Of a stretch of 22,332 bases of DNA, positions 1 to 7,789 are shown in pieces; position 1 is the first letter of the stretch, and each line of letters starts with the position of its first letter. Below the pieces are notes generated by a model. It worked only from the letters and a program-made list of their open reading frames with translations. It did not search any database and was not told the origin of the DNA. Source of the DNA: a bacterium. Lineage in GTDB: Bacteria > J088 > JAWLBW01. The position numbers and the translations under genes are program-made. Where the stretch lies: positions 62,001 to 84,332 of the forward strand of contig JAWLHK010000018.1 of assembly GCA_041690355.1 (NCBI GenBank), written 5' to 3'.

Positions 1-343
1 TAGCATCGACAATTTGCGCCCAGTTCGAGGTGAGAGCGATGACTATGTCATGGTGGACTAGCGGGTCAATGATGCCGAAAGTGCGGTCAGTTAGTCTTGT
101 CTTAGGAAAATGAATCGTTGCACACTCTGTGCGCTCTGGTTTGTATTTCCCATTCTCTTTAACGATAAAGTAAGGCCGTCCAGTTTGAGGGTGCTTCACA
201 ACCGTAAAACACGGGGGTAGGACATAGGACTCCGGGAAATAGCCATTCCTTAGAAGCCAGTTTTGAAGAGGCCGTTCTTCGAGGGCAAGTGCTAGCTCCC
301 GAGTTTGCTCATGATACTGGCGAAGGCGATTGATTGGATCCAT
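1..343 (-). CDS. N-terminal 114 aa of a probable Abi/UG-clade (defence-associated) reverse transcriptase; runs off the window edge
   Basis: Not in the ORF track. My translation from the ATG at 343 is open to the edge: MDPINRLRQYHEQTRELALALEERPLQNWLLRNGYFPESYVLPPCFTVVKHPQTGRPYFIVKENGKYKPERTECATIHFPKTRLTDRTFGIIDPLVHHDIVIALTSNWAQIVDA. LLxxGYFPxxxxLPPxF followed by FPK....R.FGIIDP resembles the N-terminal and RT-1 region of Abi/UG RTs. An SD-like GAGGA overlaps the upstream TGA. The catalytic YxDD is outside the window. Confidence 0.68.
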   Translation of the reverse strand, partial: MDPINRLRQYHEQTRELALALEERPLQNWLLRNGYFPESYVLPPCFTVVKHPQTGRPYFIVKENGKYKPERTECATIHFPKTRLTDRTFGIIDPLVHHDIVIALTSNWAQIVDA

Positions 344-353
344 CCGGACTTCC

Positions 354-1205
354 TCACCCCTTCTTTTGAAGAGCAGTTAACAGTGCACCGGCCACAATAC
401 CCATGACCTGGACAGCGGAACGCGCTTCTTCCGTGGAAACTCCTGAAACCCAAGGCCGACCGTGACCAGTTCCTTCTTTGTTGCGTAATGCGTTCACCGC
501 ACAGCCCATGTCATAAAGGGCGCGCTGGAAACGCTGTATCGCTGGCATCCTGGCCGGTTCTTGCCCAGCAGGTGCCTCAAACCCTACGGCTACGAATGCT
601 TGCCCTAACAATGTGGGAAAATTGGCGTGAGTTTGATAACTGCCGAAGCGTTCGCAGATCACATGAGCTGCTGTCGCTTCGAGAAGGTCTTTCCCTGTAC
701 CAAGCAACAAAGCAGCGTCTTCGCTGCCGCGCCGCGCTCGCCTAACATAGGCTTCCAAAGCGCGACTAAGGTCAATGCCAGAAAGTGTATCGAGGGAAAG
801 CGGGCTGAGCGTGCCGTCACGTCCCAATAAGTAGCCTTCTGCCTCAAAAGCCGCAATGGCATCTGTTACGGTATGCTCCCCGACAAAATTCGGGGAGTCC
901 TTTCGAAAGCCTCCTTTTGCTCGGATAACAGAAAGAAGTGCAGCAACGAATATCTCGCCTTTGACAGGCGCCTTATCGATGGCGTCCGATAGTATTGCTC
1001 GGACCCGCTTTGCTTTACCGACAACCTGGCCCTGAGCCTTTGGGTCCGCTGGAGTCAGACCTGCGCGATGTACTTGAAAATCAATGTCGGAGTGCGAGGG
1101 CTCACGGTGTCTATCTGACTGCGCATCGTTTACCAGGTTAGCGACGGCAACGATAATCGTGTCGGAGAGTGGGGCTCGAGGCCTCTTATCTGGGGGTAGA
1201 GTCAC
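354..1205 (-). CDS. Abortive infection family protein with C-terminal Abi_C (HEPN-like) domain
   Basis: 283-aa ORF with GTG start. The C-terminal half has the Abi_C pattern: GKDLLEATAAHV, FPTLLGQAF, and VNALRNKEGTGHGR (RNxxGxGHG, an Rx6H HEPN-type motif). Codon usage is more A/T-rich than in the core genes. Confidence 0.82.
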   Translation of the reverse strand: MTLPPDKRPRAPLSDTIIVAVANLVNDAQSDRHREPSHSDIDFQVHRAGLTPADPKAQGQVVGKAKRVRAILSDAIDKAPVKGEIFVAALLSVIRAKGGFRKDSPNFVGEHTVTDAIAAFEAEGYLLGRDGTLSPLSLDTLSGIDLSRALEAYVRRARRGSEDAALLLGTGKDLLEATAAHVICERFGSYQTHANFPTLLGQAFVAVGFEAPAGQEPARMPAIQRFQRALYDMGCAVNALRNKEGTGHGRPWVSGVSTEEARSAVQVMGIVAGALLTALQKKG

Positions 1206-1479: not shown

Positions 1480-1812
1480 TCAACCGATGTCCTCAAGGTC
1501 GAGCGCAATCGTAAGGGCCCGGTCCAGCTCCTCGAGTTTCAGGGTTCCCAGGGACCCCACGAAATCGGTGAGCACTTCCTTGCGAAGCGACACCAAAGCG
1601 TCGCAGTGGATGCTGCTGTCGTGCTTGAGCCCTTCCGGGGCGCCGACGGGGACTTCGGTTTCGAGCCCATGATAGGCCGTGTAGACCGGTGCGCAGACCG
1701 CGGTCGAGAAACGGGAATCGAGAAGAACCTGCCGGCTGACGATCACGAAGACACGGGTCCGCTTCGGGTCGCCCGACGGGTGGCGCACCCGATACAGCTC
1801 GCCGCGCCTCAC
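1480..1812 (-). CDS. mazF: Type II toxin, PemK/MazF family endoribonuclease
   Basis: 110 aa. MRRGELYRV...[14 protein letters not shown]...[22 protein letters not shown]...[11 protein letters not shown] is a typical PemK-fold pattern. GTG start overlaps the antitoxin stop (GTGA). Confidence 0.9.
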
Positions 1813-2039
1813 TCGGCGTCCTGAAACGCGAGCACGTCTTCGACCTCTGCATTCAAGGCGTCAGCCAGCCGGTCGAGGCGTTTGCGTTCGCGCGCCTCAC
1901 GCGCGGCTTTTTCGTGCCGGACCACGTAGGCGGCGACCGCCTCTTCGATGAGCTCGGACCGGGACCGCTCGGCGTAGCCGCCGCGATCGAGCGCTTTCAG
2001 CAGGTCATCGTCGAGTGTGATGGATATCTTCCGCTTCAT
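1809..2039 (-). CDS. Ribbon-helix-helix (CopG/MazE-like) antitoxin
   Basis: 76 aa. [15 protein letters not shown]...[10 protein letters not shown] is an RHH signature; acidic C-terminus; 4-bp overlap with the toxin gene. Confidence 0.88.
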
Positions 2040-4014: not shown

Positions 4015-4193
4015 CCCCGTCCTTCTCCACCCGGCGCAGCGGCAGCGGAGCCGCGGATGGAGAAGGAAGGGGCCGGGGGAAGGTAGAGGTTCCGAAGCGT
4101 GTTTTCGCGCCCTGAACCCCCCGTCCTTCTCCACCCGGCGCAGCGGCAGCGGAGCCGCGGATGGAGAAGGAAGGGGAAGGGGGAAGGTAGAGG
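4015..4193. repeat. Family A repeat block: two tandem 75-bp palindromic units (4015-4089, 4119-4193)
   Basis: CCCCGTCCTTCTCCA-cccggcgcagcggcagcggagccgcgga-TGGAGAAGGAAGGGG-(cc/aa)GGGGGAAGGTAGAGG, period 104 bp. Confidence 0.95.
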
Positions 4194-4245
4194 GAGACGC
4201 CGAAGGAAGTGGCACCCCCGCCCCCACGGCGGCCATAATGATCCG

Positions 4246-5079
4246 ATGCCCATCCTCGATCGCCCCGACGCACGAATCGCCTATGAAGTCGCCGGTACCG
4301 GCCAGCCGGTCCTCCTGATCCAGGGGGTCGGCGTGACGGGAAGCGGCTGGGGGCCGCAGGTCGAAGGGCTCCGGCACCGGTTTGCCGTGGCCACCTTCGA
4401 CAACCGGGGGATCGGCAAGAGCCTTCCCCTGCGCGGATCGGTCACCATCGAGGCCATGGCCGAAGACGCGGCCGCGGTACTCGATGCGCTCGGGTGGGAG
4501 AGCGCGCACGTCATGGGGCACTCCATGGGTGGCATCATCGCGCAGCAGTTCGCGCTCGCGTTTCCGCAACGCACGCGCAGCCTCGTGCTCCAGTGCACGA
4601 CGTCGCGCGGACCCGACGCCGCCCGGCTTACCCCGCGCCTTCTCGGATTGGGCCTGCGTGCCCGGATCGGAACCCGCGCCATGCGCCGCCGCGCCTTTCT
4701 CGAGATGCTCTATCCGGATGCGTGCCTCGACACCGTCGACGTCCCGCGGCTAGCCGAGGAGACCGGCGCGCTCATCGGCCGCGACCTGGCGGATCAGCCG
4801 AATGTCGTTTTCCGCCAGGTGCGGGCCATGGCGAAACACGATGCCGAGCATCGGCTCGGCGAGCTGAAGGGAATCCCCACGCTGGTGATGGCCGGCGCCC
4901 ACGATCCGATCGGGCGGCCGGAATGCGGCCGGCGGCTTGCCGCGGCGATTCCCGGCGCCGTGTACGAGGAATATGCGGATGCCTCGCACGGCCTTCCGCT
5001 CCACTTCCCCGACCAGGTCAACGCGCGCCTGCTTGCCTTTCTCGAGTCGATCAAAGGCGCGGCCATTCCTGAAGCCTGA
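4246..5079 (+). CDS. Alpha/beta fold hydrolase (MenH/PcaD-like)
   Basis: G.PVLLIQG, FDNRGIGKS, nucleophile elbow GHSMGG, PTLVMAGAHD, ASHGL. Probable start is the ATG at 4246; the track's upstream extension is repeat DNA. Confidence 0.92.
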   Translation: MPILDRPDARIAYEVAGTGQPVLLIQGVGVTGSGWGPQVEGLRHRFAVATFDNRGIGKSLPLRGSVTIEAMAEDAAAVLDALGWESAHVMGHSMGGIIAQQFALAFPQRTRSLVLQCTTSRGPDAARLTPRLLGLGLRARIGTRAMRRRAFLEMLYPDACLDTVDVPRLAEETGALIGRDLADQPNVVFRQVRAMAKHDAEHRLGELKGIPTLVMAGAHDPIGRPECGRRLAAAIPGAVYEEYADASHGLPLHFPDQVNARLLAFLESIKGAAIPEA

Positions 5080-5088
5080 TCCTGAACT

Positions 5089-5267
5089 CCCCGTCCTTCT
5101 CCACCCGGCGCAGCGGCAGCGGAGCGGCGGATGGAGAAGGAAGGGGCCGGGGGAAGGTAGAGGGTCCGAAGCTTGTTTTCGCTCCCTGATCTCCCCGTCC
5201 TTCTCCACCCGGCGCAGCGGCAGCGGAGCCGCGGATGGAGAAGGAAGGGGAAGGGGGAAGGTAGAGG
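5089..5267. repeat. Family A repeat block: two tandem 75-bp units (5089-5163, 5193-5267)
   Basis: Near-identical direct copy of 4015-4193, including the 29-bp linker (tccgaagc.tgttttcgc.ccctga). Confidence 0.95.
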
Positions 5268-5290
5268 CCCCGCCTCGATCCCCCCCCCGC

Positions 5291-7789
5291 CTACCGCCCC
5301 CGCGGCTTCGGCGGCTCGGCCGTGAGCGGATCTTCGGGCCAGCTGTGCCGGGGATAGCGCCGCCCGAGCTCCTTCCGCAAAGCCGGATAGGCCCGCGCCC
5401 AGAACCCCGCCAGATCGGTCGTGACCTGCACGGCGCGCTGGTTCGGCGCGAGCAGGTGCAGCACGAGGGGAACACGGCCCCGGCCGAGCACCGGCGTTGC
5501 CTTCATGCCGAAGAAGTCCTGCAGGCGGCTCTCGGCCCAGGGCGGCCGTCCCGGTTCATAGTGGATCCGGATCCGGCGCCCGCCCGGAAGGCGCAGCTGA
5601 TCGGGGAATTCCTCGAGGATGCGCCGCTGCTCGGCCGTCAGCTGTGCCGTCCACGTGCCCAGCGGGTCGGCGTCCCGGATTTCCGCGAACGACGTGCGCC
5701 CGTGGGCCAGGGCGCGCAGCAGATCCGCTTCGATGGCCTCGCCGGTCGCGGGGAGGCCGAGCTCGGGAAACGCCTCGGCGGCCACGCGCACCCGCTCCCG
5801 CCACTGCGTGACCGAGTCCACATCGAGAAACGCGGCGAGTCCGGCGGCGGCCGCCTTCTCGGCCAATAGCGCCTGGGCCGCTTCAGAGGCGGTGCCGGCC
5901 GCGTGGGGATCTACCTTCGACTCGTCGAGCACGAGCCGATCGATCCGCAGCTGCGAAACGACTTCGACGCGCTTCGCGGACTCGAGCCAGCGCGCCTCCA
6001 CCTGTTCCACTAGCGGACTCGGGTCCATGTCGAGCAGCCAGTCGGGATCCATGGCGGCCACGAGGCGCAGCCGCAGGTCACCTTTCGTGCCGGCCTGGGC
6101 GCGCTCTTCGACGTCGACGGCGACGACCCATTCGGTTCCGCTCGGCAGATGGGGATCGAGCAGGCGCGCGGTTCCGCCGGCGGCGAGCAGGACTTCGGCG
6201 CCCGCCCCCGAACGCGCGCGGCTCAGGTGGCCGGCCACTTCGCGCACCTTGCCGATGCGGTCAGGGAACCCGGCCAGCACGGCGCGGCGCACCGCCGACT
6301 CGACCTCCGTGGGGGAAAGTGAGGAACGCTTCCGGGCGGAATCGGGCATGCGCTCGAGAAACTGCTGTCGCACGCGCGCAAGCGCCGGCTCCTCGCGCGG
6401 AAAGCGGGCGTCGAGGAGTCCGGCCACTTCATTGTCGGGCGCCTGGCGCGCTTCGGAGATCCACGCCGCGACGGTCGCCGCCTCGGCTCCCACCTTCCGC
6501 GCGACCCCTTCTTCGAGCAGGCGGGCAATCCGCGGATGCGCCGGGTACTGCACCATCCGCTTCCCGAGCGGCGTGATGGTTCCCGCGTCCGTCAGCGCGC
6601 CGAGCTGCACGAGCAGTGTCCGGGCCCGCGCAAGGGACGCTTCGGGCGGCGGCGTGAACCAGGGGAACGAGTCCACGTCGGTCGCCCCAAGTGCGGCGAG
6701 CTCGAGCAGGGTTCCGGCCAGATCGAGTCGTTCGATCTCGGGTTTCTCGAAGGCCGGCCGCGCCGCATGATCGCCGCTGCCGTACAGGCGCACGCAGACT
6801 CCCGGTGCGGTTCTGCCGGCACGCCCCGCCCGCTGGGTGGCAGAGGCCTGACTGATCCGCTGCAGGCGCAGCGTGGGCATCCCCGTCCACGGCTGGATCG
6901 AGGGGATTCGAGCGACGCCGCCGTCGAGCACGGCCGTCACGCCGTCGATCGTGATCGATGTTTCGGCCACGTTGGTCGCGAGCACGACCTTGGGCCGCCG
7001 TCCCGGCCGCACGGCGCGCTCCTGCTCTTCGCGCGAGAGATCCGCATAGAGCGGAAGGATGTCGTGCGCTCCGCCGAATCGCGCGGCAAGACGGTCGGCC
7101 GTCCGGCGGATCTCGCCGACGCCGGGCAGAAAGGCGAGCACGTCGCCGCGGTGACCGAGCCGCTCCAGCCGCTCCAAGCCGGCGAGCATGCGATCTTCCA
7201 TCGGCAGATCGTGGGGCAGATCGAGATACTCGATGTCGACAGGGAATCGGCGTCCTTCCGAGACCAGGTGGGGCGCGCCGTCGAGCCACTGCGCGATGGC
7301 GGCGCCGTCGAGGGTCGCCGACATGACGAGCAGGCGCAGCTCGGGCCGCGACGTCTGCTGCAGCCGTCGGAGGAGCGCCAGGGCGACATCCCCTTGCAGG
7401 TGGCGTTCGTGGAATTCGTCGAGGATGACCAGGCCGACGCCGCGCAGCTCGGGATCGCGCAGCAGGCGGCGCAGGAACATGCCTTCCGTGTAGAAGCGCA
7501 GGCGCGTTTCGGGTCCCCCCACGTTCTCGAAGCGGAAGTGGTAGCCGACGGTTCTGCCGATGGGCTCGCCCATTTCTTCGGCGATACGATAGGCGGCCAT
7601 GCGCGCGGCGAGCCGGCGCGGTTCGAGCACGAGAATCTCGCGTCCGCCCGGAAACGATTCCGCCAGCAGGGCCGCGGGCACGCGCGTCGTCTTGCCGGCC
7701 CCCGGCGCAGCTTCGAGCACGAGCGCATTTCCGCGCTTGAGTGCCGCGGCAATCTCGGGAAGCAGGGGATCGATAGGGAGCGCGTGCAT
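5291..7789 (-). CDS. hrpB: ATP-dependent DEAH-box RNA helicase HrpB
   Basis: 832 aa. APGAGKTT, LEPRRLAAR, DEFHER, MSATLD, LATNVAETSITI, QRAGRAGR, and HrpB C-terminus LLAPNQRAVQVTTDLAGFW...RYPRHSWPEDP. Confidence 0.96.
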   Translation of the reverse strand: MHALPIDPLLPEIAAALKRGNALVLEAAPGAGKTTRVPAALLAESFPGGREILVLEPRRLAARMAAYRIAEEMGEPIGRTVGYHFRFENVGGPETRLRFYTEGMFLRRLLRDPELRGVGLVILDEFHERHLQGDVALALLRRLQQTSRPELRLLVMSATLDGAAIAQWLDGAPHLVSEGRRFPVDIEYLDLPHDLPMEDRMLAGLERLERLGHRGDVLAFLPGVGEIRRTADRLAARFGGAHDILPLYADLSREEQERAVRPGRRPKVVLATNVAETSITIDGVTAVLDGGVARIPSIQPWTGMPTLRLQRISQASATQRAGRAGRTAPGVCVRLYGSGDHAARPAFEKPEIERLDLAGTLLELAALGATDVDSFPWFTPPPEASLARARTLLVQLGALTDAGTITPLGKRMVQYPAHPRIARLLEEGVARKVGAEAATVAAWISEARQAPDNEVAGLLDARFPREEPALARVRQQFLERMPDSARKRSSLSPTEVESAVRRAVLAGFPDRIGKVREVAGHLSRARSGAGAEVLLAAGGTARLLDPHLPSGTEWVVAVDVEERAQAGTKGDLRLRLVAAMDPDWLLDMDPSPLVEQVEARWLESAKRVEVVSQLRIDRLVLDESKVDPHAAGTASEAAQALLAEKAAAAGLAAFLDVDSVTQWRERVRVAAEAFPELGLPATGEAIEADLLRALAHGRTSFAEIRDADPLGTWTAQLTAEQRRILEEFPDQLRLPGGRRIRIHYEPGRPPWAESRLQDFFGMKATPVLGRGRVPLVLHLLAPNQRAVQVTTDLAGFWARAYPALRKELGRRYPRHSWPEDPLTAEPPKPRGR

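Follow-up and report, generated by a model that had tools for sequence, protein, structure and literature searches.

Gene content and setting of the locus

The window considered here is a continuous stretch of 22,332 nucleotides (G000:C18:62001-84332). It opens at its left edge inside a reverse transcriptase (RT) gene of the minus strand, and along the window this gene is followed by a gene for an Abi_C (HEPN-type) protein, a MazF/PemK-RHH pair and a HicB-like gene (Table 1). The part of the RT gene inside the window appears in the list of open reading frames (ORFs) as a 114-codon frame at positions 2..343, which begins with an ATG (the reverse complement of 341-343) and whose 3' end is open at the first base of the window. 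The initial annotation of this edge had described 114 open codons with an ATG, a Shine-Dalgarno site and two peptides, and all of these are present, on the minus strand. The translated 114-aa frame contains WLLRNGYFPESYVLPPCF and FPKTRLTDRTFGIIDPLVHHDI, and the Shine-Dalgarno-like sequence GAGGAAG lies 5 nt before the ATG, where it overlaps the TGA stop codon (354-356) of the Abi_C gene. The start codon is supported by 19 relatives, whose N-termini line up with residue 1 of the protein. The initial annotation had called the ORF missing from the gene track supplied with the sequence; truncation at the edge of the window would account for such a gap.

Beyond the window, the frame continues with RT motifs to a complete ORF of 532 aa on the minus strand of a 16 kb piece of the same contig (L002 10745..12343), uninterrupted by stop codons. 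A genome-wide search found this gene as a single copy (100% identity), with no internal stops.

Table 1. Features at and around the left edge of the window. Positions are those of the window unless a contig (G000:C18) or L002 coordinate is given.
Feature	Position	Strand	Basis or remark
UG14 RT, first 114 of 532 codons	1..343	-	ORF list; PADLOC; Pfam RVT_1
UG14 RT, other 418 codons	G000:C18:60745-62000, left of window	-	contig ORF
10-nt spacer, Abi_C stop to RT start	344..353	-	sequence, ORF coordinates
Abi_C (HEPN-type) gene, 283 aa, immediately upstream of RT	354..1205	-	Pfam Abi_C
MazF/PemK-like toxin gene	1480-1812	-	overlaps RHH gene by 4 nt
RHH (CopG-like) antitoxin gene	1809-2039	-	overlaps MazF/PemK-like gene
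HicB-like antitoxin gene, 70 aa	2230-2442	+	no obvious HicA gene adjoining in ORF list
PLD-like protein, 336 aa, single HKD	L002 9597-10607 = G000:C18:59597-60607, left of window	-	Pfam PLDc_2

The setting of the RT gene is horizontally acquired and resembles a defence island. The GC fraction over it (L002 10800-12200) is 0.47-0.50 against 0.58-0.65 in the surrounding DNA, a dip that is expected of recently acquired DNA, and the Abi_C gene, the PLD-like gene, the MazF/PemK-RHH pair and the HicB-like gene all lie within 3 kb. No match to the RT was found in one genome of the same family (97% complete) or in three genomes of the same phylum, and two distant genomes among 30 related ones gave weak matches to the RT core. 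The lineage is thinly sampled: of the 30 genomes nearest to this one among 199,900 species, a single one shares its family and three its phylum.

The PLD-like gene begins 137 nt downstream of the RT gene. Its product matches PLDc_2 with 28.8 bits (cut-off 27) and gives weak matches to ZacB and DrmC, its C-terminal half being without a match. As a candidate for a conserved partner of the RT it was rejected, since tblastn found it at its own locus and in none of the 80 other UG14 loci. About 2 kb beyond it, to the left of the window, a gene of the plus strand (L002 4544-8647) codes for a secreted-looking protein of 1367 aa, whose C-terminal half contains numerous short repeats rich in Tyr, Ala and Thr. 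A consensus-based promoter scan returned four promoter-like sites where shuffled sequences gave an expectation of 2.0, and these do not stand out above the shuffles. The corresponding terminator scan returned five sites against 4.8 expected, with none between the Abi_C and RT genes.

Family assignment and conserved motifs

The PADLOC model for UG14 (PDLC03751 RT_UG14) matches the complete protein with an E value of 9e-197 and 652.7 bits, residues 7-509 covering positions 4-492 of a profile of 493. The runners-up, Drt6 (226.6 bits), AbiP2 (195.1 bits) and Drt4 (194 bits), follow at a distance, and the NCBIfam Drt4 model gives 152.5 bits and does not reach its cut-off of 450. Pfam detects RVT_1 (E 1.7e-10) and no other domain in the 532 aa, neither a fused HEPN domain of the AbiA type nor any other extra domain. 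The length of the frame, 532 aa without a stop in the contig, and the E value of the family profile place the gene far beyond what chance would produce.

The initial annotation had recognized an Abi/UG-type RT N-terminus in the fragment, had set it apart from the RTs of group II introns and retrons, and had held that the subtype could be called only from the full ORF. The Abi/UG-type call is borne out by the UG14 score, and the distinction from group II intron and retron RTs by the low values obtained with the NCBIfam models of group II intron RT/maturase (TIGR04416; 49.4 bits, cut-off 300) and retron St85 RT (NF038233; 21.7 bits, cut-off 235). The subtype can now be named as UG14, of class 1. 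The N-terminal motifs that it had named also proved to be genuine features of the family: none of 120 UG14 homologues deviates at G34, Y35, P43, P44, C45, F46, P80 or K81. The UG14 N-terminal motifs align with NYFP..IPPCF and FPRT..IIHP of the solved DRT4/UG15 protein.

GYFPE..LPPCF and RFKDDYR are invariant motifs common to this RT and the UG14 group. The catalytic aspartates are intact, D173 in motif A and D267 and D268 in motif C, but motif C is of the form FxDD and not YxDD. The YxDD motif that the initial annotation had named as a feature to look for takes the form FKDD here (F265-K-D267-D268). Together with these aspartates, Y149, H184, R264 and F265 are identical in all 120 homologues, and D213 is kept in 119.

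A search of 8000 scored candidates gave 860 homologues at E<=0.001. Those among the matches listed are about 500-546 aa long and 52-66% identical, and they come from many phyla, which points to purifying selection on the UG14 family. The RT described here is a further member of this catalogued group and not a new kind of system. UG14 was defined by Mestre et al. (2022; PMC9226505), who give it a strong defence association and list it as a predicted defence gene.

The protein ends in an acidic, disordered tail of about 20 residues (511-532; L002 10745-10810) that is absent from 18 of the 19 aligned relatives. A DDIP stretch in this tail is reminiscent of the acidic tip at the C-terminus of bacterial SSB, a curious likeness given that phage SSBs trigger DRT4; the stretch comprises four residues, is not terminal and may be due to chance.

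Structure model

AlphaFold2, run on a 20-sequence alignment, gave a model of the RT with a mean pLDDT of 80.2 and a pTM of 0.82. It comprises the RT core, an all-helical region (314-505) and a disordered tail (508-532), and the loop formed by residues 133-151 is of low confidence. The C-terminal helical-repeat domain that the initial annotation had named as a feature to look for is therefore present in the model. The HEPN domain named as its alternative is not fused to the RT; a separate HEPN (Abi_C) gene stands directly upstream instead.

In a Foldseek search of the PDB, the top matches were DRT4/UG15 (9vdo, E 2.4e-17; 9l9s), Abi-P2 (7r08), DRT6 (9wy8), AbiK and AbiA, with E values from 2e-17 to 1e-6, and the RTs of group II introns, retrons and diversity-generating retroelements (DGRs) ranked below them, from E about 1e-6. 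In VIA-align, the best superposition was that with DRT6 (Z 27.1, 425 aligned residues, 2.9 A, model residues 24-494), followed by DRT4 (Z 26.2, 424 aligned residues, 3.0 A), Abi-P2 (Z 24.0) and AbiK (Z 21.5); next in rank came the group II intron GsI-IIC RT (Z 15.1 over 280 residues). The alignments to DRT6, DRT4, Abi-P2 and AbiK span model residues of approximately 20-497, the helical domains included. The predicted fold is that of the class 1 UG/Abi architecture, with fingers and palm and a helical domain in the place of the thumb, the replacement reported for AbiK and Abi-P2 (PMC9508834).

Neighbours of other UG14 reverse transcriptases

We scanned 185,579 species genomes and confirmed 109 relatives of the RT, for which 80 loci were kept (81 with our own). 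A single RT frame is found in 77 of the 81, our own included, and the frame is broken in L013, L023, L054 and L079. For the partner search, 362 flanking ORFs were clustered (own locus included) and 131 immediate neighbours were scanned with Pfam. In the 72 other loci for which one or more neighbours had been called, no constant partner emerged. The immediate neighbours at other UG14 loci include BrxL, AIPR, PIN_12, SIR2_2, HNH proteins and methylases.

Some UG14 RTs reside in tight operons with a methylase gene upstream and a helicase gene downstream, the genes being separated by gaps of 15 nt or overlapping by 4-31 nt. The loci concerned include L006 (2151-8652), L025 (2028-8620), L027 (609-4246), L022 (1877-5541), L057 (129-4215) and L049 (1150-4820); the methylase and/or helicase family occurs in 8 of the 81 loci. 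The upstream protein, of approximately 940-980 aa, is a type III-like DNA methylase (PADLOC MTase_III, 1892 bits in L025), and the downstream protein, of approximately 700 aa, is a UvrD-like helicase with NERD+UvrD and 'RTasHel' matches. The order of genes resembles the methylase-RT-helicase arrangement described for UG35, but the RTs at these loci are UG14 proteins (662-730 bits to RT_UG14).

The upstream Abi_C/HEPN gene

The protein encoded directly upstream of the RT matches Pfam Abi_C (E 4.9e-12, 46 bits, cut-off 24). It has no PADLOC match, and its N-terminal domain has no Pfam match. All 20 aligned homologues keep its R241-N-x5-H248 motif, which fits the Rx4-6H motif of HEPN-type domains. 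At E<=0.001 its family comprises 2315 proteins, and the best matches are 58-68% identical. It shares with AbiJ-like HEPN proteins (Abi_C, PF14355) the Abi_C domain, the R-N-x5-H motif, a length of about 280 aa and occurrence alone in variable contexts, and differs from them in the missing PADLOC match and in the N-terminal domain without a Pfam match.

Taken together, we consider it likely that the frame at the left edge opens an intact gene for a defence-type RT of group UG14 (class 1 UG/Abi) that works as a single-gene system. The strongest alternative is a two-gene system, co-transcribed and translationally coupled, in which the Abi_C/HEPN protein would be the RNase effector and the UG14 RT its sensor or regulator; this appears rather unlikely to us. 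The two genes are probably co-transcribed, given the spacer of 10 nt and the Shine-Dalgarno-like site of the RT that overlaps the Abi_C stop. However, when viewed from the side of the Abi_C protein the association disappears, as a UG14 RT was found within 4 kb in none of 80 metagenome loci of its family, 69 of which had at least 300 nt downstream, and the family has no constant neighbour in these 80 loci.

The same gene order is seen once more, in L013, where an Abi_C homologue (52% identical over 277 aa) lies directly upstream of an RT homologue (55% identical), but both genes are interrupted by stops there and neither is the nearest match to its counterpart in our locus, with homologues from elsewhere reaching 60-67% (HEPN) and 61-66% (RT) identity. 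Close HEPN-type neighbours on the same strand are present at L070 (-1, AbiJ_NTD3 + Abi_C), L066 (+1, Abi_C), L073 (-1, Hypoth_Ymh) and L047 (+1, Hypoth_Ymh), which brings the count to 6 of 81 with our own locus and L013 and leaves 75 without such a neighbour; moreover, those of L070 and L073 match models of stand-alone defence systems, AbiJ and PD-Lambda-3_B (285 bits), respectively. Precedents for a partner do exist, both in the tightly coupled operons that a subset of UG14 RTs forms with a methylase and a helicase and in the HEPN partners or fusions described for the class 1 RTs UG22 and AbiA-large (Mestre et al. 2022, PMC9226505).

As an obligatory partner of the RT, the Abi_C protein was rejected: tblastn finds it in 3 of 81 UG14 loci (our own, L013 and, by a weak match, L070), and the reverse count is the 0 of 80 given above. 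A prediction of the complex between the two proteins scored 0.00 (mark 0.32) and counts neither way.

Since none of the 80 loci of the Abi_C family carries a UG14 RT and since the neighbours of UG14 RTs vary, the Abi_C/HEPN gene most likely represents an AbiJ-like abortive-infection module of its own, co-transcribed with the RT by coincidence; it may instead be an accessory partner. On our reading, both this gene and the PLD-like one downstream are defence genes that neighbour the RT and are independent of it.

In L013 the two genes extend over positions 4106-6536, the Abi_C gene being cut at 4813 and the RT gene split into 4893-5951 and 6144-6536. Either the copy is decaying, or the breaks are errors of assembly in a genome reconstructed from metagenomic data.

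That the gene is an inactive or non-defence relic, an RT-like sequence kept in the island without a current role, is very unlikely. The L013 copy may indeed have decayed, and our searches of the literature found no UG14 member with experimental data, whether on phage protection or biochemistry; a full-text search for UG14 RTs returned no relevant paper beyond that of Mestre et al., where the groups assayed are UG12, UG10, UG7 and UG28 and the controls UG2 and UG15 (PMC9226505). The frame is nevertheless intact over its whole length, it retains all checked residues that are invariant in the 120 homologues, and the family keeps its level of identity across many phyla among the matches listed. 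It is hardly conceivable that we are dealing with an RT of a retroelement (group II intron, retron or DGR) copying an RNA template encoded nearby. In favour of such an RT stand the Pfam RVT_1 match and the weak scores with the group II intron and retron RT models of NCBIfam. These scores, however, remain well short of the cut-offs, a search of 6 kb around the gene (L002 8500-14500) gave no Rfam family at E<=0.1, and the group II, retron and DGR folds match the RT core alone (Z 12-15, 210-290 residues), whereas the class 1 Abi/DRT enzymes give Z 21-27 over about 425 residues.

Residue correspondence with DRT4 and a possible mechanism

Several relatives with solved structures make DNA in an unusual manner. 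DRT4 produces covalently attached, template-independent ssDNA primed from Tyr125, and DRT6 also makes protein-linked, untemplated DNA (PMC12783706); in AbiK, priming occurs from Tyr44 in a long loop (PMC9508834). According to two preprints of 2026, His160 and Asp192 of DRT4 in addition form an RNase site, which is switched on when dNTPs act together with a phage SSB-like protein bound to the ssDNA product (10.64898/2026.10.21.760695; 10.64898/2026.10.27.754916). Q23 and D29 are named as its nucleotide-positioning residues (bioRxiv 10.64898/2026.10.21.760695).

Correspondences with DRT4 were counted along sequence alignments between the UG14 profile and the DRT4 chains. D149 of DRT4 falls on D173 of the RT, and Y238-I-D240-D241 on F265-K-D267-D268. 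The RNase pair H160/D192 falls on H184 (120/120) and D213 (119/120). A pair of the H184/D213 type is conserved in Abi-P2 too, and the histidine belongs to a widespread RT motif, so that conservation of the His/Asp pair is no proof of RNase activity. Q23 and D29 correspond to S39 and V41, and since they are not kept, the composition of the product may differ from that of DRT4, whose DNA is purine-rich.

The priming residue Y125 falls on S144, in a conserved LRSGR stretch. This position is occupied by S in 109 of 120 homologues, by T in 3, A in 4, G in 3 and I in 1, which means that a hydroxyl is missing in 8 of 120. Five residues further, in the same low-confidence loop, Y149 is invariant (120/120). 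As S144 is not strictly kept and Y149 is, we infer from these alignments that Tyr149 is the best candidate for the priming residue and Ser144 the second.

By homology with its solved relatives, the UG14 RT probably serves an abortive-infection defence, in which it would synthesize ssDNA that is untemplated and primed by protein. On the model of DRT4, DRT6, AbiK and Abi-P2, it may assemble as trimers or as hexamers made of two trimers. A hydroxyl side chain in the flexible loop 133-151 would prime the synthesis, and the product would be covalently attached, untemplated ssDNA. A phage factor, for instance an SSB-like protein, would then engage this ssDNA and trigger abortive infection, which might proceed through a DRT4-like RNase site (H184/D213). 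The lack of an Rfam match within 6 kb of the gene is consistent with an RT that works without a template.

A more specific proposal joins the UG14 RT and the Abi_C/HEPN protein into one module, here and in L013, in which protein-linked ssDNA, primed from the Ser144/Tyr149 loop instead of a tyrosine of the DRT4 type, would report phage SSB-like proteins to a HEPN RNase acting in trans. We regard this as unlikely to hold. If true, it would represent a modular variant in which the effector of the RT has been swapped, a possibility also hinted at where sister UG14 genes lie in methylase-RT-helicase operons.

Comparison with known systems

UG14 is among the larger class 1 UG/Abi groups, as judged from the number of homologues given above. 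With the rest of the group, the RT shares the full-length profile match, a size of about 510-530 aa, the combination of RT and helical-repeat domain and the defence-island setting. It differs in its acidic C-terminal tail and in the coupled Abi_C/HEPN gene upstream (found at one other of 80 loci), and its host comes from a sparsely sampled lineage.

Among the named systems, DRT6 (UG12; 9wy8) is the best structural match and the second-best PADLOC profile (227 bits), but its sequence identity is 19% and its PADLOC score one third of that of UG14. AbiK and Abi-P2 (7r06, 7r08; Figiel et al. 2022, PMC9508834) have the same fingers and palm with a helical domain for the thumb, and in Abi-P2 the sequence similarity reaches into the helical domain (profile positions 87-436). 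Their identity to the RT is 15-20%, and the priming loop of AbiK, with Tyr44, is N-terminal and thus elsewhere than the loop predicted in the UG14 RT. In later DRT numbering, DRT10 corresponds to UG17 and DRT11 to UG5.

DRT4 (UG15; 9vdo, 21ou, 9l9s) offers a parallel for the proposed chemistry. The overall fold, the N-terminal YFP..PPCF motif and the catalytic Asp pair are the same, conserved residues align with the H160/D192 pair, and a flexible loop occupies the priming position. The identity is about 20%, though, and the UG14 RT has FKDD where DRT4 has YIDD, Ser144 where DRT4 has the priming Tyr125, and neither Q23 nor D29. Protein-primed, untemplated DNA synthesis is thus known from the UG14 relatives DRT4, DRT6 and AbiK, and is coupled to an RNase in DRT4; UG14 departs from DRT4 in its FxDD motif, in a Ser/Tyr candidate primer placed in another register and in different nucleotide-positioning residues. 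The behaviour of a UG14 enzyme would show how general this mechanism is. With the RT described here, an intact UG14 gene that has a HEPN gene tightly coupled to it is added from a lineage with few sampled genomes.
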